A stretch of 64,000 nucleotides of DNA from Myxococcales bacterium (GCA_038231075.1 JBBRMA010000020.1:4964-68963); one strand, 5' to 3'; positions 3,770-28,740 are shown, counted from the first letter of the stretch. Numbers and translations: made by a program. Notes: a model not told the origin generated them from the letters alone.

Positions 3770-4783
3770 TCAACTCTCCTTGGGCTTCTTCTTCCGCGAA
3801 GGCTGCACCCGCGGCGGCTCGCCGGGCTGCTTGGCATATTGCGGCGGCCAAGGTGCGTCGCCCTGGCCTTCCACTTCCTGCCGCTTTGATAGCTCCAATA
3901 GGCCGTCGAGGCTGAATGAGTTCTCGTCGATACCAGCCCCCGCGTCGCCGCGCTCGCCATAGAGCTTGGGTACAGTCGCCAGGGTAAAGTCGGCCGGGTT
4001 GCAGCTCGACAGCTCGTCCCATTGCAAGGGCATCGACACCCGCGCGTCTTGAGTTGGCCGCACGCTATAAGCCGAGGCCACGGTGCGGTCCTTGGCGTTC
4101 TGGTTGTAATCAATGAAGACGCCGTGCCGCTCTTCCTTCCACCACTTGCTGGTCGCGAGCGTCGGCGCCTTTTTCTCCACCTCGCGGGCCAGCGCCAGCG
4201 CCGCGCGGCGCACCTCTTGGAAGCCCCACTTGCGCTCGATGCGGGCGTTGATGTGGATGCCGCGCGAGCCGCTCGTCTTGGGAAACCCGCGCAGCCCGTT
4301 CTCTTCCAACACTTGCCGAGCGAGAAGCGCCACTGCGCGGATCTGCGGCCACTCGATCCCGGGCTGCGGATCCAAATCGACCCGCAGCTCATCCGGATGG
4401 TCCAGATCGTCGGCGCGCACCGGGTGCGGGTTCAGGTCGAGACAACCGAGGTTCGCGACCCAAGCCAGGCCCGCGGCGTCGCGGATGACCACTTCGTCGG
4501 CGGTGCGTCCCGAAGGAAACTTGAGCTCGACGGTCTCGACCCACTCGGGCCGGCTGGTGGGCGCGCGCTTTTGAAAAAAGAACTCGGCCTCGGCGCCGTC
4601 GGGATAGCGCTTGAGCGCCATGGGCCTGCCGCGGATGCCGGCGAGCGCGCCCTCGGCGACGGCGAGGTAGTAGCGGACCAGGTCGAGCTTGGTGTGCCCC
4701 GCGCGCGGGAACATCACCTTGTCGGGGTTCGAGACGGACACCTCGCGCCCGGCGACCTGGAAGATCTCCTTCTTGGTGGCCAT
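3770..4783 (-). CDS. Stand-alone LigD-type primase-polymerase (Prim-Pol/PolD family)
   Basis: SNPDKVMFP, KRYPDG, FFQKR, ELRVDLDP, KTSGSRGIH, IDYNQN, ASAYSVR; C-terminal PGEPPRVQPS. Confidence 0.9.
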   Translation of the reverse strand: MATKKEIFQVAGREVSVSNPDKVMFPRAGHTKLDLVRYYLAVAEGALAGIRGRPMALKRYPDGAEAEFFFQKRAPTSRPEWVETVELKFPSGRTADEVVIRDAAGLAWVANLGCLDLNPHPVRADDLDHPDELRVDLDPQPGIEWPQIRAVALLARQVLEENGLRGFPKTSGSRGIHINARIERKWGFQEVRRAALALAREVEKKAPTLATSKWWKEERHGVFIDYNQNAKDRTVASAYSVRPTQDARVSMPLQWDELSSCNPADFTLATVPKLYGERGDAGAGIDENSFSLDGLLELSKRQEVEGQGDAPWPPQYAKQPGEPPRVQPSRKKKPKES

Positions 4784-4811
4784 CGGGTCCAGGGTACAAC
4801 TGAAGCCCCTG

Positions 4812-6404
4812 ATGCGCGCCTTTCTGCCAGCCGCCCTGCTCCTGACCGCCCTCGGCGCCGGCGCGGCCATGCCCCAGGGGACGGGCCCGCCCATCGATTT
4901 CTCCGGCAACGTCCTCTTCAACGAGTTCGTCTACCGCAGCATCCTCGAGCTGCCGGAGGACTCGCCCGCCACCCTCGGCACGGCGCGGAAAGTGGCGCGC
5001 ACCATCGCCCGCTTCCTCCACGACGCCGGCTACCAGCTGGCCACGGTGCGCGCGCGGGTGCACGAAGGGCGCATCCGCGTGGACGTGCAGGAAGGTCAGC
5101 TCGACAAGGTCATCTTCCTCGGCGAGGGCGCGTTCCAGACGCTGCGGCTCAAGCTCGAGTTCAGCCTGCCGCAGAACGTCTTCAACCGGCCGCTGCTCGA
5201 GCGGCAGCTGGGGCAGCTGGCCCTGCGCTTCCAGCTGCAGGACTTCGCCTACGAGCTGGTCGCCGTCGAGGACAAGGGCCGGCCGCTGCCGCAGATCGAG
5301 TCGACCATCGAGTCGCTGCAGGCGCTGCCGTTCGTGCAGGCGGGGCGGCCGTACGAGCTGCGCATCTTCGTCTCGCCGACGCCGTGGGGCACCGGGTTCT
5401 CGCCCGACCTGTACGTCGGCGGCGTGGAGGGCCTGGGCATCGGCGCGCACTACACGGGCAAGCAGCTCTTCCTCGGCAACGACCGCTGGGAGGCCGGGGG
5501 CCGCGTCGCCACCGCAGTGCGCCAGCACCTCGACTCGGCAGACTCGCGGCCGGTGCTGACGCGCGCGCTGGCCGCCGTCCGCTACATCGCGCCGCCGTTG
5601 ATCGGCGAGAATCTGCGCCCCTCGTTCACCGTGCGCGGCGATCTGATCTCCTATCAGCGGGGAGACCTGCACCTCGACAGCTACGACCAGCTCGTCCTCG
5701 AAGGCTCGCTCGACGCGCGCTATCAGATCGCGCCGCAGATCGAGCTGAGCGTTGGACTTGGCCTGGAGCGGCGCTTCCTCATCGACGTGCACAGCGTCGG
5801 CGCGCCGGCTCCACAAGTTGCCGCCGCGCCGATCGCGCAGACGAGGCCTTATGGCCAGACGTCGCTCGGGCTCACCTTCAACCACGACGAGATCCGGCGC
5901 GATCGGCGGCACGCGCTCGATGTCGATGGCCGCGTCTACGGCGCATCGTCTGGCGGGCGCGCGGACACTCTGCGGCTTCTCGCGCACTATCAAAAGATGT
6001 GGACGTTCGGCTGGAACGAGCTCTGGATCGAGCTGCGCGGGACGCTGCTCGCCGGCGATGTGCTCTTCTTGGACGAGCGATCGATCGGAAACGACCTGCG
6101 CGGTCCTTTCGGAGGGACCGACTTCGCGCGCCACGTGGCCAGCCTGAGCGTCGAGTATCGCTACTCATTCCTGCGCGACGTCTTCAAGGTCGGCATCTAC
6201 CACGACGCCGTCGGGTTCGGCGCCATCGACCGGACGGTGCCGTCGATGGGGCCGGAGAAGCTGCTCGGGGCCAACGCGGCAGGCCTCGCGGCGCACCTGC
6301 TGCTGCTCGATGAGTTCCAGTGCGACGCGTACTACGGGTATGGCTGGACGACCGACGGGCGGAATGACCACGGGCTGGCGCTGGTCATCCGGCAGGCGTT
6401 TTAG
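4812..6404 (+). CDS. Omp85/TpsB-superfamily outer-membrane protein (POTRA + beta-barrel)
   Basis: Signal peptide; POTRA-like IARFLHDAGYQLATV...IRVDVQEG; LRG motif near the C-terminus; terminal Phe. Confidence 0.65.
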   Translation: MRAFLPAALLLTALGAGAAMPQGTGPPIDFSGNVLFNEFVYRSILELPEDSPATLGTARKVARTIARFLHDAGYQLATVRARVHEGRIRVDVQEGQLDKVIFLGEGAFQTLRLKLEFSLPQNVFNRPLLERQLGQLALRFQLQDFAYELVAVEDKGRPLPQIESTIESLQALPFVQAGRPYELRIFVSPTPWGTGFSPDLYVGGVEGLGIGAHYTGKQLFLGNDRWEAGGRVATAVRQHLDSADSRPVLTRALAAVRYIAPPLIGENLRPSFTVRGDLISYQRGDLHLDSYDQLVLEGSLDARYQIAPQIELSVGLGLERRFLIDVHSVGAPAPQVAAAPIAQTRPYGQTSLGLTFNHDEIRRDRRHALDVDGRVYGASSGGRADTLRLLAHYQKMWTFGWNELWIELRGTLLAGDVLFLDERSIGNDLRGPFGGTDFARHVASLSVEYRYSFLRDVFKVGIYHDAVGFGAIDRTVPSMGPEKLLGANAAGLAAHLLLLDEFQCDAYYGYGWTTDGRNDHGLALVIRQAF

Positions 6405-6584: not shown

Positions 6585-6902
6585 ATGGCGCTGCGAGTGA
6601 TTGACCTGTCCGAGCTGCGGCTCTCCAACGAGAACGAAATCGACAACGCGATCTACGCCGTCCTGGTGGCCGCGTTCCTCGAGAGCACCGACGAAGGGGT
6701 CCTGCGCCGCCGTGTCCGGCTGCGGCTCTGCGCGCACCCGAGCCCCTGCGAGCTGGTGGACGCCGTCTGCGCCGAGCTGCGCCTGCAGGGCAAGCTGCAG
6801 TACGAGAAGTACCGCCGCGAGCAGGCCTCGCTGGTGCTGGCGGCGTTCCTCGAGCTGCCGGCCCTCGAGCGCGAGGACGTTTCACTCATGCCGGCCGCCT
6901 GA
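6585..6902 (+). CDS. Hypothetical protein (105 aa)
   Basis: ATG after GAGG; typical GC3-rich codon usage. Confidence 0.7.
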   Translation: MALRVIDLSELRLSNENEIDNAIYAVLVAAFLESTDEGVLRRRVRLRLCAHPSPCELVDAVCAELRLQGKLQYEKYRREQASLVLAAFLELPALEREDVSLMPAA

Positions 6903-6931
6903 CCCGGTCAGAGTCACGGTCACGCGGCCAT

Positions 6932-7615
6932 CTACTTCAGTCCGTATCGTTCGCCGTGCTCGCCGAGCAGGGCCGCGGCCAGAATGGTCGGCACGTACTC
7001 GGTGGCCTCTTCCGGCAGCCTCTTCTGCTCGGCCAGCCAGGCGAAGTCGCGGTGCGCAGGGCTTGCGTCGAGGGCCTTGTGCACGGCGGTCTCCCCGGCG
7101 TTGTAGGCCGCCAGCGCGAGCAGGGGCGACCCCTTGCCGAATTCGCCAAAGAGCTTGATGAGATACTCAGTGGCGGCGTGCGTCTCCTTGGCGAAGTCGA
7201 GCCGCTCGTCGCTCTCTGCCGTCACGGTCAGGCCATAGCGCCGCGCGGTCGCCGGGATGAACTGCCAGACCCCGCGCGACCCGAGCGGCGAGCTGAGGCT
7301 GCCGTCGAACCCCGACTCCGCCCAGGCGAGGTAGCCGAGCTCCTCGGGCAGCCCGCGCGCCGCCAGCTCGCGCGCGATCGTCGGCCAGCGCTGCTGCTTC
7401 CTCGCGAGGAGGGCGCCGAGGTTTTTCTGCGCCGCCAGTCGCTCCAAGTGGTGCAAGACCTTGCCGCGCAGCCAGGGCGTCGCCTCGGGCCTCGCCTCGC
7501 CGAGGCGGCCGAGCAGCGCGTCCAGGTCGCCATCGAGCGTCGTCGCCGGCGCGGCGCGCGCGGCCGGGGCCAGCAGGGCAACCGCGAGAGAGAGGCAGGC
7601 GAGCATCTTCGTCAT
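6932..7615 (-). CDS. Secreted lytic transglycosylase (SLT/MltD-like)
   Basis: Signal peptide; LAWAES (catalytic Glu), GVWQFIPATARRYGL, LAAYNAGE, TEYVP. Confidence 0.9.
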   Translation of the reverse strand: MTKMLACLSLAVALLAPAARAAPATTLDGDLDALLGRLGEARPEATPWLRGKVLHHLERLAAQKNLGALLARKQQRWPTIARELAARGLPEELGYLAWAESGFDGSLSSPLGSRGVWQFIPATARRYGLTVTAESDERLDFAKETHAATEYLIKLFGEFGKGSPLLALAAYNAGETAVHKALDASPAHRDFAWLAEQKRLPEEATEYVPTILAAALLGEHGERYGLK

Positions 7616-7691
7616 GGGAGTCTCCGTCGAGGGCGTCTTGCCCTCTCTGCCTGGTTGTTCCCGCCCGCGCGCGACCGTCGCACGGGCGCCC

Positions 7692-9497
7692 CTATTTTTC
7701 CGCGACACGCCCGGGTCGGTAGTGCGCCGGGTTCTCGAAGACGATGGCGGCGGCCAGCACGGCGGGGACGTACTCGCGCGTCTCCTCGCTGAGCAGCTTG
7801 CGGCGATAGAGGTGCCAGAAGTCGCGCCGCTCGGGGGCGAGGCCGCCGGGCTCCTGGGCCAGCGCGTGGAGCACTTCGCGCAGCTGGGTCTCGCCCATGT
7901 TGTAGGCGGCGATGGCCAGCATGAACGACTCGCGGCCGAAGTCGGCGAGCAGGTCGGCGAGGTACTGCGCGGCAGCGCGCGAGGAGAGCGCGGGGTCTGT
8001 GCGGTCGTCGCGCTCGGGGGACACCGTCAGGCCATAGCGGCGCGCCGTGCCGGGCTGGAACTGCCAGAGGCCGAGCGAGCCTTGCGGGCTCTTGGCCAGC
8101 GGGTCGAAGTGCGACTCGACGAAGGCGAGGTACCCGAGCTCTCGAGGCAGCCCGCGCGCGGCGAGCTCGCGCTGGACCAACGGCAGCGTGCGCGCCATCG
8201 CCGCGCGGGCCGCGGGGAGTCCCTTGCCGCGCAAGATCCTCGCGATGTGCGCCGAGAGCCGTTCTTTGAAGAGGGGGGGAACGGCGTACGTCCCGGCGCC
8301 GAAGCGCGCGAGCAGCGCCCGCAGCTCTTGATCGAGCGCGTCTCCCGCGGGCACGGCCCCCTTGCCGTCCTTCTTCGCCAGTTCGCGAGCGGCGCTCTCG
8401 GCGGTCCCTTCCAGCGCGCCGAGCGAAGACTCGAGGCTGCGCAGCCGCTCGGGCCGGGTCTCGTCCTGCATCGCGCGCAAGGTCTCGGCGATGCGCGCGT
8501 CGGCCAGGGCCTTGCGCTCCCGCAGCTCGGACAGCTCGCGCCGCTGCAGGACGAGCGCCACCAGGAGCGCTGCGCAGAAGGCGACCGCAGCCAGCGCCAG
8601 CGCGCGCCGGCCCGCGCCCAGAGCGGGCGAGAGCGCGCGGGACAGCTCGGCCACGCTGGCAAAGCGCTGCGCCGGATCCTCCGCCAGGCCACGCCGCAGC
8701 GCGCGCTGCACGCGGGCCGGCGCGCGATCGCCGAGCGCGTCGCGGAGCGCCACGCAGAAGCTGTACTGGTCGGCGCGCGCGCCGGCCGGCTCGCCGCGGC
8801 GCTGCTCGGGGGCCATGTACGCGGGGCTGCCCGAGGCAGAGCTCTCCGCCGCGGCCGGCAGCGCGAGGCCAAAGTCGGCGACGCGGACGCGGCCGTCGCT
8901 GCCGAGGAGCACGTTGTCGGGCTTGAAGTCGCGGTGGACGAGGCCCGCCTCGTGCGCGGCCGAGAGCCCGCGCGCGGCGGCGAGAAAGGCGCGAAGGATC
9001 TCGCCCGGCGAGCGCCCGGCCGCGCCCAGCCAGCGCGCGAGCGTTCCGCCCTCGACCAGCTCCATGGCGACGTAGAGCTGGCCGTCGATCTCGCCCGCGT
9101 CGTAGACCGTGAGCACGTTCGGGTGCGCGAGGCGGGCCATCGCGCGCGCCTCGCGCAGCAGCAGGTCGCGCGCCTGGGGGAGGCCGGCCAGCACCTCGAG
9201 CCGCAAGAGCTTGAGGGCCACGCGTCGATCCAGCCGGGGGTCACTCGCCTCGTAGACGACGCCCATCCCGCCGGCGCCGAGCGGCCGGACGATCTCGTAC
9301 CGGCCCACACGCGAGCGCCCCGCCTCGCCCGGCTCATTGGCCTCGCGCTCTTCGGGAAAGGCCGACCGCGCCGTCTCGACCAGCAGCTCGCGGCAGGCCT
9401 CGCAGCCATCGACGTGAGCTTCGACCGCGGCGGCCGAGGCGGGCGAGAGCGCCCCCTCGACGAACTCGTGCAGCCGCGATTCCGAGAGGCACGCCAC
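7692..9497 (-). CDS. Ser/Thr kinase: zf-HC2 - kinase - TM - coiled coil - SLT transglycosylase
   Basis: HVDGCEAC; GAGGMG, VALK, HRDFKPDN, DFG, YMAPE; TM ALALAAVAFCAALLVALVL; LAFVES, GLWQF, AAYNMGE; start GTG 9497 or 9524. Confidence 0.9.
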   Translation of the reverse strand: MACLSESRLHEFVEGALSPASAAAVEAHVDGCEACRELLVETARSAFPEEREANEPGEAGRSRVGRYEIVRPLGAGGMGVVYEASDPRLDRRVALKLLRLEVLAGLPQARDLLLREARAMARLAHPNVLTVYDAGEIDGQLYVAMELVEGGTLARWLGAAGRSPGEILRAFLAAARGLSAAHEAGLVHRDFKPDNVLLGSDGRVRVADFGLALPAAAESSASGSPAYMAPEQRRGEPAGARADQYSFCVALRDALGDRAPARVQRALRRGLAEDPAQRFASVAELSRALSPALGAGRRALALAAVAFCAALLVALVLQRRELSELRERKALADARIAETLRAMQDETRPERLRSLESSLGALEGTAESAARELAKKDGKGAVPAGDALDQELRALLARFGAGTYAVPPLFKERLSAHIARILRGKGLPAARAAMARTLPLVQRELAARGLPRELGYLAFVESHFDPLAKSPQGSLGLWQFQPGTARRYGLTVSPERDDRTDPALSSRAAAQYLADLLADFGRESFMLAIAAYNMGETQLREVLHALAQEPGGLAPERRDFWHLYRRKLLSEETREYVPAVLAAAIVFENPAHYRPGRVAEK

Positions 9498-9529
9498 GCC
9501 ATCTTTTGTAACATCGGGGTCCACGCCCC

Positions 9530-10441
9530 ATGGTGCCCGCCGATCCGCCAGCGTCGCTCTCGGAGCATTTTCTTTCCGCCTTGCAGGCCCGCGGGCTCAC
9601 GCCGCCGGGCGCAAGCGACGCGCTCGAGCGCGCCCTCGCCGCAGCGGCAGATTCGGCCAGGACCGCCTGGCCCCAGATCGCGCCAGACCGCGCCGGGCTT
9701 GCGCGCGCGCTCGGAGACAAGCTCGAATCCGAGGACCTGGGCGAGCCCCTCGCCGCCCTCGCCCAGGTGCGCGCCGCCGATCTGACCCTCGCGCTCGCCT
9801 GCGCCCGCGGCGAGCCGGTCGCGCTGCGCCTCTTCGAGGAGCAGTTCCTCGCGCGCGTTCCGGCGCTGGTGCGGCGGCTCGACCCCTCGGGCACGCTCGG
9901 CGCGGAGGTGGCGCAAGAGCTGCGCGAGAAGTTGCTCGTCGCTGGCGAGGGCGGCCCGCGCATCGCCGACTACTCGGGCCGCGGCGACCTGCTCGGCTGG
10001 CTGCGCGTGGTGGCACTGCGCGCCGCGCTCAAGCTGCGCCGCGCCCAGCGGAGGCACGGGCTGCACGCGCTCGGCGAACGGGAGCACGGCGCGGACCTGC
10101 TCGACGGCGCCGATCCCGAGCGCGACTATCTGCGCCTCCGCTACCAGGGCGAGTACGAGGCTGCTTTTCGCGCCGCGCTGCAGTCGCTGCACGCCCCCGA
10201 GCGGCTCCTGCTCAAGCTGCACCACGTGGACGGGCTCAGCCTGCCTCGCCTGGCCGCGCTCTATCGGGTGCACCGGGCGACCATCGCGCGGCGGCTCGCG
10301 GACCACCGGCGCAAGCTGCTCGAGACCACCAAGGCGCTCCTGAGAGACAAGCTGCGGCTGAGCGAGTCCGAGTTCGAGAGCCTGCTCGTGCTGGTGCGCA
10401 GCCAGCTTGGCGTGGGGCTGCGCTCGGCGCTGTCGAAGTAG
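9530..10441 (+). CDS. ECF sigma-70 factor, myxobacterial kinase-associated type
   Basis: DLTLALACARGE, YSGRGDLLGWLRVVA (sigma2), sigma4 HTH LSLPRLAALYRVHRATIARRL. Confidence 0.85.
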   Translation: MVPADPPASLSEHFLSALQARGLTPPGASDALERALAAAADSARTAWPQIAPDRAGLARALGDKLESEDLGEPLAALAQVRAADLTLALACARGEPVALRLFEEQFLARVPALVRRLDPSGTLGAEVAQELREKLLVAGEGGPRIADYSGRGDLLGWLRVVALRAALKLRRAQRRHGLHALGEREHGADLLDGADPERDYLRLRYQGEYEAAFRAALQSLHAPERLLLKLHHVDGLSLPRLAALYRVHRATIARRLADHRRKLLETTKALLRDKLRLSESEFESLLVLVRSQLGVGLRSALSK

Positions 10442-10543
10442 TTCCCCGGCTGAGCACTTCCTTGCCCAGCCCGTGGAACGGCGCTGCCCACTGCCGGGCG
10501 GCAGGACGTCTGCGCTTGGTCCCTCCACCGCTCTGCCGCAGCG

Positions 10544-10560
10544 ACGGCACGGTGTGTGCT
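10544..10560 (+). promoter_or_regulatory. Candidate sigma54 promoter
   Basis: CGGCACGGTGTGTGCT: GG(10546-47)-N10-GC(10558-59), upstream of the lipoprotein gene. Confidence 0.55.
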
Positions 10561-10605
10561 CTGTGCCCCTACGCGTGAAGTGTCGCGAGTGTCCGGGGGG
10601 CAGCA

Positions 10606-12468
10606 ATGCGGTCAGGGTGGAATTGGCGGCGGGTCGGCTGTGCGCTCGTCCTCGCGGTGGCCGGCTGCTCGAGCAGCGTGGCGACGCCCGATGATGGCGG
10701 CTCCCTCCAGCTCGGCGGAGACGCCGGCAATGACGCCGGCCAGGTCTCCGACGCAGGCACGCCCGCCGATGGCGGCAAAAGCTTCGACGCCGGCACTCCG
10801 GCCGACGCGGGCACTCCGACCGACGCGGGCACGCCGGGCGACGCCGGCACTGTCAGCGACGCCGGCACTGTTAGCGACGCCGGCACTGTTAGCGACGCCG
10901 GCACTGATAGCGACGCCGGAACCGTGAGCGACGCAGGCTCGCCCGCCGACGCCGGGACGCCCGACGCGGGCACCGTCTACGACGCTGGAACTCCGGCTGA
11001 CGCTGGGACTGACGCTGGCTCGCCTGCCGACGCGGGCCCCTTCGACGCCGGCCCGCCGTACACCTATCCGGACGCGACCGGCTGGAAGTTCTACGGTCCG
11101 CAGGACGGCGTGCCCGCGAAGGTCTACGGCGTCACGGCCGATCACGACGGCAACATCTGGGTCGCCGGCGGCGAGGACGGCCTCTTCCTCATGCGCCCGA
11201 ACGACACGCGCTTCCAGCAGTTCGGCCTCGCCGACGGCCTCCACCCGTACGGCTACATGGCGGACGGCTCGCCGTCGACGACCGACCCCTACCTCAACGT
11301 CATCTCTGTGGCAGGCGGCCAAGGCAGCACCGTCTACGTCGGCTACGCCGGCATCGGCGGCGAGGTGGACGGCGCGCGGCAGCCCCCGTCCGGCGAGGTG
11401 GGCTGCGAGTCGAACTGGGATCCGACGCAGCCGAACAATCCGGCCCTCAACGATCCGGCGGTCTACAAGAGCGGCGACGCCGATCGCGTGGTGTTGAGCG
11501 GCGCCGGCATCACCGTGGCCCACTACGACATCTTCAGCGGCCCCGGCATGGTCAAGCCCGAGCCGCAGGGCCGCGAGAAGATCTGCGACGTGCACCGCAT
11601 CAAGTACGACGCGAGCACCCACAGCGTCTGGTTCGGCGGCAACCACGGCTTCGCCTGGGGCGACCCGGACTTCACCGGCGCGCCGACCTGCGATGGGCGG
11701 CGCTCCTGCCAGGGCTTGCTCGAGCACGTGCACCCGGCGATCAGCGGCTGGCAGACCGACGCCAGGACCAACCTCGTCTACTACACGGGCGGCTACTACG
11801 GCATTGCCCCGGACGCCAACGGCGACGTCTGGTTCGGCGGGTTCAACCGCTCGACGCACCTCTTCTTCGGCACCAACGGCGGCGCGACCAACAAGTACGT
11901 CTTCCTCGCCGCGGCCGGCGACCAGACCCAGGATTCGGCCCACGCCTGGAACCGGATCGACGTCTGGCCGGACAAGGTCTCAGAGCCGAACTATCCGACG
12001 CCGAGCGACCGCGGCTGCACCAACGGCCAGAACTGCACGCTCGACGACCTCGTCAGCGGCATGGCCGTGGCGCCCGACCAGAGCGTCTTCGCCAGCTCGT
12101 TCCACCTGGGCATCGCGCACCTCACCTTGAGCGGCACGGTGCAGGACTACGTCAGCATCAAGGTCCCGAAGACGGCGCGGACGGCCGACCAGATCGACAA
12201 CGGCTCGTTCGGCGCGCTGGCCACCGATCCGAAAGACGGCAGCATCTGGGCGGGCCACGTCTACGGGCCGGGCATCGCGCGCATCACCGGCTCGCAGGCC
12301 CCGTACAACGTCGCCTACTTCACCGGCGACACCTTCGGCTGGGACCTCACCTTCGCCAAGATCACCGACATCCAGGCGGACGCCTGGTCCACCCCGCGGC
12401 GGATGCTGGTCGGCTGGACGGCCGCGGGGGCCGCGCCTGGCACCGTCGGCGTCTACACCGGCGACTGA
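10606..12468 (+). CDS. Lipoprotein with DAG(T/S) repeat stalk and probable beta-propeller domain
   Basis: Lipobox LAVAGC; many DAGTPA/DAGTVS repeats; propeller-like blades DGNIWVAG, NGDVWFGG, DGSIWAG. Confidence 0.8.
   Translation: MRSGWNWRRVGCALVLAVAGCSSSVATPDDGGSLQLGGDAGNDAGQVSDAGTPADGGKSFDAGTPADAGTPTDAGTPGDAGTVSDAGTVSDAGTVSDAGTDSDAGTVSDAGSPADAGTPDAGTVYDAGTPADAGTDAGSPADAGPFDAGPPYTYPDATGWKFYGPQDGVPAKVYGVTADHDGNIWVAGGEDGLFLMRPNDTRFQQFGLADGLHPYGYMADGSPSTTDPYLNVISVAGGQGSTVYVGYAGIGGEVDGARQPPSGEVGCESNWDPTQPNNPALNDPAVYKSGDADRVVLSGAGITVAHYDIFSGPGMVKPEPQGREKICDVHRIKYDASTHSVWFGGNHGFAWGDPDFTGAPTCDGRRSCQGLLEHVHPAISGWQTDARTNLVYYTGGYYGIAPDANGDVWFGGFNRSTHLFFGTNGGATNKYVFLAAAGDQTQDSAHAWNRIDVWPDKVSEPNYPTPSDRGCTNGQNCTLDDLVSGMAVAPDQSVFASSFHLGIAHLTLSGTVQDYVSIKVPKTARTADQIDNGSFGALATDPKDGSIWAGHVYGPGIARITGSQAPYNVAYFTGDTFGWDLTFAKITDIQADAWSTPRRMLVGWTAAGAAPGTVGVYTGD
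10750..11055 (+). repeat. In-frame 15-18 bp coding repeats (GACGCCGGCAC...)
   Basis: Repeated gacgccggcactgttagc-like units encoding DAGTVS/DAGTPA. Confidence 0.8.
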
Positions 12469-13649
12469 GCGCGGAAGAGCGAGTTCCACTGCTTGAGCGC
12501 GGCCCCGTTGAGGGCGAACGGCTTCACTTCCAGCCCGAAGCCATCGCCCTGCGGAGAGCAGCGCACCACCTTGGCCCAGAGGCGCAGCGGCGCCGGCTCG
12601 ACGGCAAGCTCGCACTCGACGAGCTGGTTCAACGTCAGCGGCCAGCGGCCTTCCATGCGGAAGCTCTGCGAGGCAATGCCGACGACGCTGTAGTCGCCGC
12701 GCGCCGCCGGCTGGACGATCTTGACCGGCGCGCTGAGCGGGCGAAAGCCGTCGGGCAGCGGCGTCGGCTCGACCAGCTTGGAAGGGGCGGCCTTTGGCGG
12801 CGTGCCCTCGAACGAGGCGATGACGGCGGGGATGTCCGGCAGGATGGCGGCGATCGCCTCGCGCTCGGGCCGGGTCAGGGCGGACACGCGCTTGAGCTCC
12901 TCGGCCGAGACCGACGAGTGGTGGGCGAGCAGCGCGACCACCTGGTCGCTCGCGGCCACCACTTCGACCACGCTGCCGTGCGCGCCCTGTCCGGGAGTTG
13001 CGTCGTGGTGGAGCGAGAAGACGTCGGAGAAGACCGCCGGCAGGTTCCAGCGCGCGGCGATGACGAGGCCGATCTCGACGTGCAGCCGCGAGAGCATGGC
13101 GCTCAGGTGGGCAGCGTCCTGCGCGGGGACCTCGGGGCGCTGGGCGAGCAGCTCCTCGAGCAGCGAGATGCCGACCACCCAGCCAAAGTCGTGGAGCAGC
13201 CCGCAGAGGAACGCCTCTTCGATGTTGAGCACGCGCAGCCGCGCCAGCTCCTGGCAGATGAGCGCCGACGCCACCGAGCCGTGCCACGCCTGCCGCTTGA
13301 GCGCCTGCAGGCCGCCTGCGCTCGTGGTGGTCGCCGCCAGCGCCGAGGCCAGCGAGATGCGCACGATCTCTTGAGCGCCCAGCCAGCCGACCGCTTGCGG
13401 AAGGGTGGTGATCTTCGCGCCTCGCGAAAAGAACGCCGAGTTTGCGCAGCGCAATACGCCCGCGGCGGTCACCGGGTCGGCCGAGATGGCAGCGACGATC
13501 TCCGCGATCGAATAGTCGTCCTTGCGGGCGATGGCCGAGAGGCGCAGCGCGACCGCCGGATAGGGCGGCAGCTTGAGCTTCCCCACGCGCAGGCAAGCGA
13601 CAAGCGCCTCCTCGAGGTCGAACGGCGGGTCCGGATTGAGGCCGACCAT
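12453..13649 (-). CDS. HDOD domain protein with PilZ-like C-terminal domain
   Basis: LPPYPAVA, DPVTAAGVLRCANSA, GLLHDFG, RWNLP; C-terminal GIASQSFR...AKVVRC...FGLEV. Confidence 0.85.
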   Translation of the reverse strand: MVGLNPDPPFDLEEALVACLRVGKLKLPPYPAVALRLSAIARKDDYSIAEIVAAISADPVTAAGVLRCANSAFFSRGAKITTLPQAVGWLGAQEIVRISLASALAATTTSAGGLQALKRQAWHGSVASALICQELARLRVLNIEEAFLCGLLHDFGWVVGISLLEELLAQRPEVPAQDAAHLSAMLSRLHVEIGLVIAARWNLPAVFSDVFSLHHDATPGQGAHGSVVEVVAASDQVVALLAHHSSVSAEELKRVSALTRPEREAIAAILPDIPAVIASFEGTPPKAAPSKLVEPTPLPDGFRPLSAPVKIVQPAARGDYSVVGIASQSFRMEGRWPLTLNQLVECELAVEPAPLRLWAKVVRCSPQGDGFGLEVKPFALNGAALKQWNSLFRAQSPV

Positions 13650-13836
13650 GCACTCTCCCTCGAAGTCTTCCCCGTGATCGGCCGGCGCGCCCGCTTCTGG
13701 AGCAGCGACAAACGTCGTAGGATGCGCGCCCGCGGTCCGCCAGGCGGCGGAGGGCGCGCTCACTCCGGCAACTAGCGGAGTCCCGGGCGCGCCGCGAGTG
13801 GTGTAGGAGAGCACCCTCGCACTGACCGGAGGCTCG

Positions 13837-14310
13837 ATGTCCCGCACCGCGCTCTCGCTCGCGCTCCTCGCCCTCGCCCCGCTCTCGGGCATGGGCTGCA
13901 CGCCGACGTTGTTCATGAACCGGTCGTTCCTCGTCCCCGAGGAGCTGAAGCTCTCGAGCACCGGGTACGCCAGCTTGAAGTCCACCGGTGAGACGTTCGA
14001 CCTGACGCCCATCAAGGCGCAGGAGTCGCGGATGGGCGAGCGGGTGCAGGTGCTCGAGGTGCACGGCAGCTACGTGCTCATCGGCGACGGCTGGAAGAAG
14101 GCGTGGCGCATCTGGCCCGCCGGCAAGGACGAGGCGAAGTACAAGGCCGTTGGCCTCGAGGCAGGACCAGCAGGATCGCTGTTCCAGGCGCCGACGCTCG
14201 AGGCGAGCGGCAAGTGCGCGCTGTTGAAGTGGCAGGGCAGGGCCGGGCCAGCACAGGCCTACATCACCGCTGACGGAGACGCCGATGCGAAGAAGTGTGG
14301 AGACGAATAG
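13837..14310 (+). CDS. Hypothetical lipoprotein
   Basis: Hydrophobic leader ending SGMGC; GGAGG RBS. Confidence 0.7.
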   Translation: MSRTALSLALLALAPLSGMGCTPTLFMNRSFLVPEELKLSSTGYASLKSTGETFDLTPIKAQESRMGERVQVLEVHGSYVLIGDGWKKAWRIWPAGKDEAKYKAVGLEAGPAGSLFQAPTLEASGKCALLKWQGRAGPAQAYITADGDADAKKCGDE

Positions 14311-26928: not shown

Positions 26929-28740
26929 ATGTCCACCATTCCGCGCATGTTCCTCGACCGGGTGGTGAAGAGCGCCGCCCACCGCGCCTTCACCTCCTTC
27001 GTCGACGGCAGCTACCAAGACTTCACCTGGCGAGACTACGACCGGGACTCGCGCGACTTCGGCCTGGGCCTCGTCGAGCTTGGGCTCAAGCGCGGCGAGA
27101 CCGTGGCCATCCTCGGCTCGACCCGGCGCGAGTGGGTGCTGAGCGACATCGGAGCCGTGGGCGCGGGCGCCATCACCGTCGGCCTCTACCCGACGCTGAA
27201 CCCCGAAGGCACCGGCTCGATGTTCTACGTCATCGACCACTCGGAGTCGCGCTACCTCGTGGTCGAAAGCGGGAAGATCCTCAAGGAGCGAATCGGGCCC
27301 ATCCTCGGCAAGATCGGCCGCGTCGAGAAGATCATCCTCTGGGAGTGCGACGCCGAGGCGAAGAAGCTGGACCCCCGCGTCGTCTCCTTCGCCGAGGTGT
27401 CCGCCCTCGGCAGCGCCGCCCACGCGCGCGACACCGGACTCTGGCAGCGCACCTGCGACGCCGCCAAGCCCTCCGATGTGGCGATCCTCGTCTACACCTC
27501 GGGCACCACGGGGCAGCCCAAGGGGGCGATGCTCACGCACGGCAACGTCTTCGCTCTCGAGGAGTCGCTCAGCCAGGTGGTCCCGCCCCACTCGGACGAC
27601 GAGTGCACCGTGAGCTTTCTTCCCATGGCCCACGTCGCCGAGCGCTGCGTCGGCCACTACGGACGCATCCGCCAGGGCTACGCGACGCGCTTCGCCCGCT
27701 CGTTCGACACCATCATCGAGGATCTAAAGGCGGCGCGGCCCACCATCTTCGGCTCGGTCCCGCGCATCTTCGAGAAGGTCTACGCCGGCGTGATTGGCAA
27801 GGTCTCCACCAAGCGCGGCCTCGCCGGCTTCATCGGGCGCGCGGCGCTGCGGGCGGGCATGGAGTCGTGGCGGGCGAGACAGCGGGGCGAGAGCGTGGGC
27901 CTCTACACGCGCCTCTTCGCCTGGGTCTTCCAGCGCACCATCGCCGAGAAGGTCCGCGCGGGCTTTGGCGGCCGCTGCAGCTGGATGGTGAGCGGCGCCG
28001 CTCCCATCGCGGTCGAGATCCTCGAGTTCTTCGACGCCTGCGGCCTGCGGACCTTCGAAGCCTACGGCATGACCGAGACCAGCGCCCTGCTCACCATCAA
28101 CGGCCCTGACGCCTTCCGCTACGGCACGGTGGGCAAGGCCCTGCCCGGCGTCGAGCTGCGCATTGCCGAAGACGGCGAGATCCAGGCCCGCGGTCCCAAC
28201 GTCTTCAAGGGCTACTTCAAGGATCCAGAGGCGACCGCGGCCGCCTTCACCGCCGATGGCTGGTATTGCACCGGCGATATCGGCGCTTTCGACAAGGACG
28301 GCTTCTTGCGCATCACCGATCGCAAGAAGAACATCCTCATCACCGCTGGCGGCAAGAACATCACGCCCTCCAATATCGAGAACGAGGTCAAGTCCCACCC
28401 GCTCATCTCTTATTGCCACTTGCACGCCGACCGGCGGCCCTATCCGGTGGCGCTCATCTGCCTGGACCCCGACGAGCTGAAGAAGCTGGCCCAGGACAAG
28501 GACGCCCACCAAAGCGCGGCGGTGAAGAAGGCGGTGCAGGAGGCGATCGACCGGGCCAATGGCCGCTCGGCGCAATATGAGCGCATCGGCAAGTTTGCCA
28601 TCTTGCCCCAGGAGTTCTCCGTCGAGGGCGGCGAGCTGACGCCGACCTTGAAGGTGAAGCGCAAGGTGGTCGATACCAAATATGCGTCGATTCTCGACGC
28701 GCTCTATGCCGAAGGGAAGCAGGAGCGCGGCGCCGCTTGA
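26929..28740 (+). CDS. Long-chain fatty acid--CoA ligase (AMP-binding)
   Basis: YTSGTTGQPKG, YGMTE, TGDIG, DRKK, ELTPTLKVKR. Confidence 0.92.
   Translation: MSTIPRMFLDRVVKSAAHRAFTSFVDGSYQDFTWRDYDRDSRDFGLGLVELGLKRGETVAILGSTRREWVLSDIGAVGAGAITVGLYPTLNPEGTGSMFYVIDHSESRYLVVESGKILKERIGPILGKIGRVEKIILWECDAEAKKLDPRVVSFAEVSALGSAAHARDTGLWQRTCDAAKPSDVAILVYTSGTTGQPKGAMLTHGNVFALEESLSQVVPPHSDDECTVSFLPMAHVAERCVGHYGRIRQGYATRFARSFDTIIEDLKAARPTIFGSVPRIFEKVYAGVIGKVSTKRGLAGFIGRAALRAGMESWRARQRGESVGLYTRLFAWVFQRTIAEKVRAGFGGRCSWMVSGAAPIAVEILEFFDACGLRTFEAYGMTETSALLTINGPDAFRYGTVGKALPGVELRIAEDGEIQARGPNVFKGYFKDPEATAAAFTADGWYCTGDIGAFDKDGFLRITDRKKNILITAGGKNITPSNIENEVKSHPLISYCHLHADRRPYPVALICLDPDELKKLAQDKDAHQSAAVKKAVQEAIDRANGRSAQYERIGKFAILPQEFSVEGGELTPTLKVKRKVVDTKYASILDALYAEGKQERGAA

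Follow-up and report, generated by a model that had tools for sequence, protein, structure and literature searches.

How could a Gram-negative cell turn a change in its wall into a change in gene expression by means of a protein kinase? The question is raised by a locus of an uncultured myxobacterium (Myxococcales bacterium, GCA_038231075.1), which lies in a stretch of 64,000 nucleotides (JBBRMA010000020.1:4964-68963), hereafter the window. Three genes occupy positions 6932-10441, in a region whose G+C content is 0.68-0.76: a sigma factor of the extracytoplasmic function (ECF) type, a divergent receptor in which a zinc-binding anti-sigma (ZAS) domain and a Hanks-type Ser/Thr kinase are joined through a transmembrane (TM) helix to a lytic transglycosylase (LT), and an exported LT paralog (the free LT). 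These genes may form a three-gene envelope-signalling unit, in which the ZAS head of the receptor would hold the sigma factor until a wall event sensed by the LT activates the kinase, releases the sigma factor and leads to transcription of the free LT. We give this model about an even chance of being right: the locus looks like a previously undescribed variant of kinase-linked ECF signalling, and the signal, the phosphorylation target and the link between sigma factor and promoter are the parts that we infer.

To our knowledge, what is understood of how bacterial Ser/Thr kinases sense peptidoglycan comes almost wholly from the PASTA domains of Gram-positives and actinobacteria, and we know of control of ECF sigma factors by kinases only as the sigma factor's direct phosphorylation, in group ECF43. 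Here, one chain unites anti-sigma domain, kinase and wall enzyme, and with it come a partner sigma factor, a gene likely to be the target and a candidate promoter. The unit thus looks like an undescribed link between wall state and gene expression in a Gram-negative cell.

The kinase-transglycosylase fusion and its partner genes recur

An earlier note on this DNA, made from the sequence alone, had described an ECF sigma factor, a kinase fused to an LT and a paralogous LT, and all of its sequence claims were reproduced by Pfam and NCBIfam matches and by alignments (Table 1). Is the fusion genuine? An assembly chimera, or the read-through of two adjacent genes, would be conceivable in a draft genome of 153 contigs, and one related locus (L186:596-2331) indeed carries a kinase-LT gene split over two frames, by a frameshift or a sequencing error, although it has intact close relatives (P0010 and P0011). 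The same single open frame, however, is found in genomes G002, G007 and G018 and in metagenome locus L125, the L186 contig carries the same fusion, there are 16 protein clusters, and the coding pattern of G+C at third codon positions (GC3) is unbroken across the junction. As the same architecture and gene order are found on independent contigs, neither chance nor assembly error accounts for them; recurrence in the alignment of 16 proteins, in the loci found by tblastn and in the metagenome loci refutes an artefact, whose probability we consider negligible.

The fusion was detected on six contigs, counted as five lineages because L125 and L039 are nearly identical, and in 16 protein clusters at 90% identity (its own included) or at least 8 at 50%. 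When residues 340-610 of the receptor were used as query, the best 120 matches listed comprised 16 Pkinase+SLT proteins (its own included), 97 FHA+SLT proteins and 7 with SLT alone. Both halves occur in one open frame in at least four of 363 genomes of the same order (G000, G002, G007, and G018), all in one family; the best three candidates per genome were scored, and the tallies include the unpublished genome G256, on which no claim rests. A query spanning the junction (residues 200-460) gave split or weak matches across the order and did not raise this count. Finally, when a library of 1.84 billion representatives (50% identity level) was scanned, at least eight Pkinase+SLT clusters came up among the best 150; Pfam was run on nine of these 150, and the eighth cluster (P0010) was counted from its domain list. 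The fusion is therefore rare (at least eight clusters at 50% identity among the best 150) and known so far only from uncultured bacteria.

The gene order is conserved as well. By tblastn, G002, G018 and G007 show the sigma factor, the kinase-LT and the second LT arranged alike. Of 80 metagenome loci carrying the periplasmic module, 71 encode FHA-LT proteins and two encode kinase-LT proteins (L125 and L186), while six are cut off and one is unclear; a second LT lies just downstream only in the two kinase-LT loci, L186 also having the sigma factor and L125 being cut upstream. Altogether, a free LT follows the fusion in 6/6 loci, compared with 0/71 FHA-LT loci, and the sigma factor precedes the fusion in all five loci where upstream DNA is present. 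The search for Pkinase+SLT proteins and their neighborhoods thus shows a recurrent fusion and a trio conserved in five lineages, with the sigma factor and the free LT as its steady partners. Beyond the trio, tblastn with chosen window proteins detected no conserved neighbors, except for a POTRA protein at another position in L041, and tblastx between fusion loci was dominated by spurious high-GC matches, from which no shared genes were drawn.

Table 1. Coordinates of the three genes, of the receptor domains and of the promoter-like motif copies in the window
Feature	Position	Strand	Description	Basis
Free LT paralog	6932..7615	-	227 amino acids; signal peptide and MltD-like SLT domain	
Bipartite motif GCGAC-N16-GAAC	7657..7681	-	41 nt upstream of free LT start	
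ZAS / Hanks kinase / TM / helical hairpin / LT receptor	7692..9497	-	601 amino acids; 610 if the start is GTG 9524	Pfam and NCBIfam; alignment of 16 fusion proteins
MltD-like (family 1D) LT catalytic module, no LysM	7719..8339	-	residues 396-602; catalytic E470	
Periplasmic helical hairpin, coiled-coil-like	8367..8504	-	residues 341-386; two long helices	
Single TM helix	8535..8615	-	residues 304-330	
Hanks-type Ser/Thr kinase domain	8712..9299	-	residues 76-271; all catalytic motifs	
ZAS-type anti-sigma domain	9351..9497	-	residues 10-58; C12, H37, C41, C44	
ECF sigma factor, TIGR03001 (Myxococcales family 1)	9530..10441	+	303 amino acids; N-terminal extension of ~80 residues (9530-9769)	
Second motif copy GCGAC-N16-GCAC	9533..9557	-	35 nt upstream of GTG 9497, inside first sigma codons (opposite strand)	

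The receptor places a transglycosylase module with intact motifs in the periplasm

Receptor residues are numbered here on the 610-amino-acid open reading frame (ORF) at 7692-9524 (minus strand). GTG 9497 is the likelier start, because 15/15 relatives in the alignment begin with M-x-C-x-S at the position of window Val10. From this start, the divergent sigma gene is 32 bp away (5 bp from GTG 9524), in keeping with the distance of about 30 bp or less given in the earlier note. On the other side, a gap of 76 bp separates the receptor stop from ATG 7615 of the free LT.

The TM helix is the only 19-residue stretch of the receptor with a Kyte-Doolittle mean of at least 1.6. With one such helix, and with the sigma-binding and ATP-using parts N-terminal to it, the LT lies on the periplasmic and not on the cytoplasmic side. 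Its SLT domain (PF01464) matches residues 457-551 at 82.1 bits (cutoff 21.3), and the FVESHFD (catalytic Glu, E470-S471), GLWQF and AAYNMG motifs are all present. Among the 16 aligned fusion proteins, GLWQ and Y-N are invariant and the catalytic Glu is kept in 15, the remaining one having a deletion there. An AlphaFold2 model of residues 340-610 (47-row alignment) reached a mean predicted local distance difference test score (pLDDT) of 92.2 and a predicted template modelling score of 0.88; the helices of the hairpin correspond to H2-15 and H19-47 of the modelled fragment, with block pLDDT values of 81-94. The best PDB match of this model is Pseudomonas aeruginosa MltD (8RHF; E 2.2e-07, 29% identity over 206 columns), and phmmer against 8RHE (1.5e-17) aligns the ES, GLWQF, AAYN, and ET..YVP motifs. 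The MltD equivalog NF008050 scores 77.8 bits for a cutoff of 508, no LysM domain appeared in the Pfam scan, and the anchor is an inner-membrane helix. Given the lack of LysM and the equivalog score far under the cutoff, the ectodomain is an MltD-like catalytic module, not an MltD ortholog.

On the cytoplasmic side, the kinase domain matches Pkinase (PF00069) at 117.8 bits (cutoff 31.7) over the residues listed in Table 1. The Gly-rich loop (G83/G85/G88), the VAxK Lys (K105), the alpha-C Glu (E125) and the HRDxKxxN (H197-R198-D199, K201, N204), DFG (D217-F218-G219) and APE (A238-P239-E240) motifs that define Hanks kinases are invariant in 16/16 fusion proteins. The PASTA-kinase model NF033483 gives 193.3 bits for a cutoff of 450, only residues 74-269 match it, and Pfam detects no PASTA domain.

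The N-terminal zinc finger (zf-HC2, PF13490; residues 16-45, 36.3 bits, cutoff 22.2) appears from its residues to be a full anti-sigma motif, a point overlooked in the earlier note. C12, H37, C41 and C44, which make up the complete ZAS motif (HxxxCxxC plus an upstream Cys), are invariant in 16/16 fusion proteins, and their numbering presumably matches that of RsrA. Might the receptor then be a redox switch, in which oxidation of these cysteines would release the sigma factor as in RsrA, the LT would merely anchor or place the protein at the wall and the kinase would have other substrates? The complete and invariant Cys/His set would suit such a role, as would a weak match of the receptor to the RsrA family model (TIGR03988, E 0.0024). 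However, the conserved catalytic residues of both kinase and LT and the LT paralog downstream would be left unexplained, and many ZAS domains bind zinc without sensing redox. We consider a redox switch improbable.

The sigma factor is predicted to be held by the receptor

The sigma factor belongs to TIGR03001 (232 bits, cutoff 154.6) and also passes the ECF superfamily model TIGR02937 (43.5 bits, cutoff 42.9). Its N-terminal extension has the GC-position pattern of coding DNA and is kept in most homologs.

When the sigma factor was modelled together with receptor residues 1-75, the interface score ipSAE was 0.83, 0.84 and 0.83 in three runs, compared with 0.00 for the best of three controls; the partners had pLDDT values of 73 or more, and 91% or more of the contacts recurred between runs. 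When the tool was calibrated, 58 of 80 solved complexes attained the ipSAE mark, as did 2 of 110 mismatched pairs, a yardstick that is rough here as our own alignments were used. The predicted contacts join sigma residues 147-167 (region 2) and 222-246 (region 4) to ZAS residues 14-58. The ZAS head is thus predicted to clamp both regions of the sigma factor.

Could the kinase instead phosphorylate the sigma factor directly, the phosphate being needed for RNA polymerase binding and the zinc finger serving only as a docking site for the substrate? For the link between kinase and sigma factor, the earlier note had taken the pairs EcfK/PknS and EcfP/PknT as its model. A kinase beside an ECF sigma factor is a hallmark of phosphorylation-controlled groups according to PMC7826278, PMC8999054 and PMC13147305, and our sigma factor has this hallmark, its gene adjoining that of a Hanks kinase. 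In addition, the conserved DYSGRG loop contains a nearly invariant residue, Ser149, which lies inside the predicted ZAS interface. Nevertheless, by the criterion taken from PMC8999054, ECF43 sigma factors have lost the acidic DAED motif in region 2.2 and carry Ser/Thr there instead, whereas the TIGR03001 consensus reads ..DEVAQEL.. (D-E) and the window protein ..AEVAQEL.. (A-E): one or more acidic residues thus persist and a Ser/Thr run is absent, the alignment to the canonical motif being made by eye. Moreover, kinase-linked ECF groups typically lack an anti-sigma factor according to PMC7826278, whereas a full ZAS domain is carried here by the kinase itself. Because the acidic pair is kept in region 2.2 of the family and the kinase has its own ZAS domain, sequestration and release is a better model than the EcfK/PknS scheme. 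The adjacency noticed in the earlier note stands, while the type of sigma control that it borrowed fits less well, and we regard direct phosphorylation of this kind as quite unlikely.

The free transglycosylase is an old paralog

The free LT carries an SLT domain (71.9 bits in Pfam) with E-S, GVWQF and AYNAG motifs, and aligns with receptor residues 398-602 at 46% identity over 205 amino acids (E 4e-50); this alignment covers the upstream segment that the earlier note had seen to be common to the two proteins. We place its start at ATG 7615, not at 7708, because of the GC-position pattern (a coding GC3 pattern is absent from codons 1-31 of the long ORF) and of the N-terminal hydrophobic stretch, MTKMLACLSLAVALLAPAARA, which is its signal peptide. 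A lipoprotein reading was rejected on inspection of the sequence, as the Cys at position 7 is too near the N-terminus for a lipobox signal peptide. Of the secreted muramidase of the earlier note, what is seen is a Sec-type signal peptide and hence export to the periplasm; secretion or prey lysis finds no support.

In a tree of the LT modules, five of six free LTs form one clade (99%) whose branching order mirrors that of their kinase-LT partners, the free LT of the window being a long branch (1.24), and the 28 FHA modules form a clade with 100% support. Because the free-LT branches mirror the kinase-LT branches, the duplication must be old and the two LT genes have diverged together. The local duplication put forward in the earlier note thus holds as an old event, given the 46% identity and the parallel branches, whereas a recent one is rejected by the tree.

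A promoter-like motif precedes the free transglycosylase

In 5/5 lineages, the stretch that separates the stop of the kinase-LT from the start of the free LT, otherwise diverged, carries (T)GCGAC, exactly 16 nt, and CCAC, GCAC or GAAC; the motif ends 22-41 nt before the free-LT start codon. GCGAC-N16-SMAC occurs three times in the window, against a mean of 6.15 in shuffled sequences, and 0.3-0.5 times per 10 kb in related loci. Two of the three window matches precede the free-LT and kinase genes, both on the minus strand, and share 17 of 25 positions. The third, at 27428-27452, lies inside long ORFs and is probably due to chance. On the kinase side, L039 has GCGAC-N16-ATAC 36 nt upstream of the kinase start. 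No sigma-70 promoters or terminators were found in a scan of positions 6700-10700.

The motif would work as a promoter, and the neighboring sigma factor would be the one that reads it. The earlier note had named 7616-7700 as the place to look for a sigma-dependent promoter; a promoter-like element does lie there, and its dependence on this sigma factor is presumed. A further GCGAC-N16-CCAC was observed just after the free LT in G002 (L039:7347-7371), ~200 nt before a 583-amino-acid ORF, which might be another member of the regulon.

Receptor modules come from two larger families

The two halves of the receptor have distinct relatives. Compared with an FHA-LT paralog of its own genome, the receptor shows homology (46% identity) from residue 309 to the C-terminus. 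Since this homology starts inside the TM helix, TM helix, hairpin and LT form a cassette whose cytoplasmic head has been exchanged. There are two FHA-TM-hairpin-LT paralogs in this genome, at G000:C27:44069-45604 (L043:6070-7605; 511 amino acids) and G000:C9:78131-79642 (L044:6131-7642; 503 amino acids), and their neighbors give no clear functional hint.

As for the head, we examined 80 related kinase loci (L045-L124) from Polyangiaceae, Kofleriaceae, Nannocystaceae, Myxococcaceae, Sorangium, Archangium and others, of which 36 have HxxxCxxC before the kinase. A sigma homolog lies within 3 kb in 22 of these 36 loci but in none of the 44 without the motif, a contrast that is descriptive and not a statistical test as the 80 loci are mutually related. 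Full-length ZAS-kinases carry C-terminal TPR repeats in 24 of 28 cases and SLT in none. No kinase-LT fusion was found among the 80 kinase loci, which came from a genome-contig scan with a whole-protein alignment that picked kinase motifs. Judging from sequence relationships, the receptor head appears to derive from a widespread ZAS-kinase family of Myxococcota, and the recurrent pairing suggests a large class of kinase-fused anti-sigma factors in this phylum.

No description of a kinase-SLT fusion, of an FHA-SLT (FHA-TM-LT) protein or of a kinase with a fused anti-sigma domain was found in the library of papers searched, although the pairing of ZAS-kinase and sigma factor may be mentioned in the supplementary group descriptions of PMC7826278 or in the myxobacterial kinome of Perez et al. 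2008. The list of Myxococcus xanthus LTs in the key resources table of PMC11444678 mentions neither an FHA domain nor a kinase. The locus points to two larger groups for which we found no description: FHA-TM-LT proteins and ZAS-kinase/sigma pairs across Myxococcota.

A sensor, or an output?

The family relationships of the LT cassette raise the main rival to our model, in which signalling would run from inside to outside: the LT would be the output, a membrane-tethered wall cutter set in place and time by cytoplasmic phospho-signalling, and sequestering the sigma factor would do no more than tune how much of the second LT is made. FHA copies, the majority, would dock on phospho-threonine, the present one bears its own kinase, and the phosphorylated kinase might even recruit the two FHA-LT paralogs of the genome. 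FHA+SLT is indeed the commonest architecture with this periplasmic module (97 of the best 120 matches, 71 of the 80 metagenome loci), which favors an output role; homology between the two kinds of protein begins exactly at the TM helix; two FHA-LT paralogs are present in the genome itself; the catalytic Glu is kept in 40/40 modules inspected (6/6 kinase-LT, 6/6 free-LT and 28/28 FHA-LT), a conservation that, at the level of sequence, fits an enzyme as well as a sensor; and kinase-LT fusions without the ZAS motif exist. Three of the at least eight clusters (P0207, P0211, and P0241) lack HxxxCxxC, so that a kinase-LT fusion needs no sigma factor.

Yet a sigma factor and a separately promoted LT paralog are found at every fusion locus and at 0/71 FHA-LT loci, which an output role leaves unexplained. 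In P0241 (633 amino acids, kinase-TM-LT), which lacks the ZAS motif, the catalytic Glu-Ser and AYN are replaced. This protein resembles a pseudo-enzyme, a hint that in its lineage the domain may bind or sense; that the domain is kept without its catalytic Glu suits binding better than an enzyme role. Overall, we consider signalling from inside to outside unlikely, without dismissing it.

Our own model can be laid out as follows. At rest, the ZAS domain would hold the neighboring ECF sigma factor at the inner membrane by clamping regions 2 and 4. A change in the peptidoglycan bound or cut by the LT, for example abnormal or uncross-linked glycan strands, would alter the ectodomain or its stalk and switch the kinase on; the LT domain would in this way sense peptidoglycan. 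The kinase would then phosphorylate either the ZAS domain or linker of its own chain or the sigma factor held there, and so free the sigma factor. The freed sigma factor would transcribe the periplasmic LT paralog from GCGAC-N16-SMAC and, in the window and L039 lineages, also the receptor gene. Such a route would be a one-polypeptide version of the mycobacterial one from PknB to the ZAS anti-sigma factors RshA and RseA. The diderm wall-sensing pathway of the earlier note, with the LT as sensor or enzyme, is borne out in its material parts (the fusion, the periplasmic LT and the conserved partners), while sensing itself is presumed.

Besides the features that favor an output role, several observations weigh against this model. 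The kinase-side copy of the motif was not seen in L040, L041 and L186; the motif is not enriched in other ZAS-kinase/sigma loci (8 in 291 kb, compared with 35 in 744 kb); and no copy was detected ahead of the sigma gene, which gives no sign of autoregulation of the sigma factor. The motif is also unlike what we take to be the common GGAAC/CGTC type of ECF promoter, and since two of its five copies are short palindromes, it is possibly an operator. Regarding the predicted complex, ZAS/ECF complexes have already been solved, and the score may reflect likeness to them rather than binding. Finally, between the APE motif and the C-terminal helix, the window kinase lacks a C-lobe segment that the majority of its 15 relatives possess; in P0003 and P0004, too, this region is shortened.

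The sensing model and the alternatives considered above (an output LT, direct phosphorylation, and a redox switch) can overlap. On a broader reading, the locus would be a diderm counterpart of the PASTA kinases, in which a live LT ectodomain sits on a kinase and anti-sigma protein, binding or cutting of glycan is read directly as sigma release, and the phosphorylated kinase recruits the FHA-TM-LT paralogs, giving a wall-cutting complex under phospho-control, with self-amplification by way of the free LT that the sigma factor drives. This reading is tentative and, as a whole, rather doubtful.

Neighboring genes

Directly downstream of the sigma gene, positions 10606-12468 (plus strand) encode a putative lipoprotein of 620 amino acids, which has a long low-complexity stretch rich in DAGT and weakly matches 'two component regulator propeller'. 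It is probably outside the unit, as tblastn found no copy in L039-L041. It is followed by a 520-amino-acid HDOD-domain protein (12453-14015, minus strand; 132.1 bits). On the other side of the trio lie a gene with a LigD primase-polymerase domain (3770-4921, minus strand; 295.6 bits) and, beside it, a POTRA-bearing outer-membrane-type protein (4689-6404, plus strand), whose homolog near the fusion in L041 was mentioned above. Because these two ORFs overlap as listed, the real starts of the genes are probably internal.

Comparison with known systems

The closest functional parallel is found in Mycobacterium tuberculosis, where PknB, RshA (SigH) and RseA (SigE) likewise bring a wall-facing Hanks kinase, a zinc-binding anti-sigma factor and an ECF sigma factor into one pathway. 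According to PMC8999054, phosphorylation of the ZAS factors RshA and RseA by PknB releases the sigma factor. That route uses three separate proteins and a PASTA ectodomain, whereas here a single chain holds both kinase and ZAS domain, and an LT whose catalytic motifs are intact in sequence serves as ectodomain. The ECF43 pairs EcfP/PknT (Vibrio parahaemolyticus) and EcfK/PknS (Xanthomonas citri) resemble our locus in having an ECF sigma factor beside a transmembrane Hanks kinase. However, their sigma factors lack the acidic region 2.2 and are phosphorylated directly, and their kinases have no anti-sigma domain, unlike the TIGR03001 sigma factor with its acidic residues.

PASTA kinases (PknB, PrkC, and StkP) are, like our receptor, receptor Ser/Thr kinases with a peptidoglycan-related outer part, but the receptor has no PASTA domain, a diderm host, an ectodomain with an enzyme fold, and an NF033483 score far under the cutoff. 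That ectodomain finds its best match, in structure and sequence, in P. aeruginosa MltD (PDB 8RHE/8RHF/8RHI), which is a lipoprotein with LysM, whereas the receptor module lacks LysM and is hung from an inner-membrane helix and a hairpin.

Within Myxococcota, the FHA-TM-LT proteins share the TM helix, the hairpin and an LT homologous to the receptor from residue 309, but they bear an FHA head instead of ZAS and kinase, form a separate clade, and have a neighboring sigma factor or LT paralog in 0/71 loci. Conversely, the ZAS-kinase-TPR proteins share the HxxxCxxC and kinase head (at ~40-50% identity with the query) and have a neighboring sigma factor of like type, but end in TPR repeats (24/28) and never in SLT, whereas the receptor ends in an LT. 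Taken together, these relatives suggest a much wider coupling of phospho-signalling to wall cleavage among Myxococcota.

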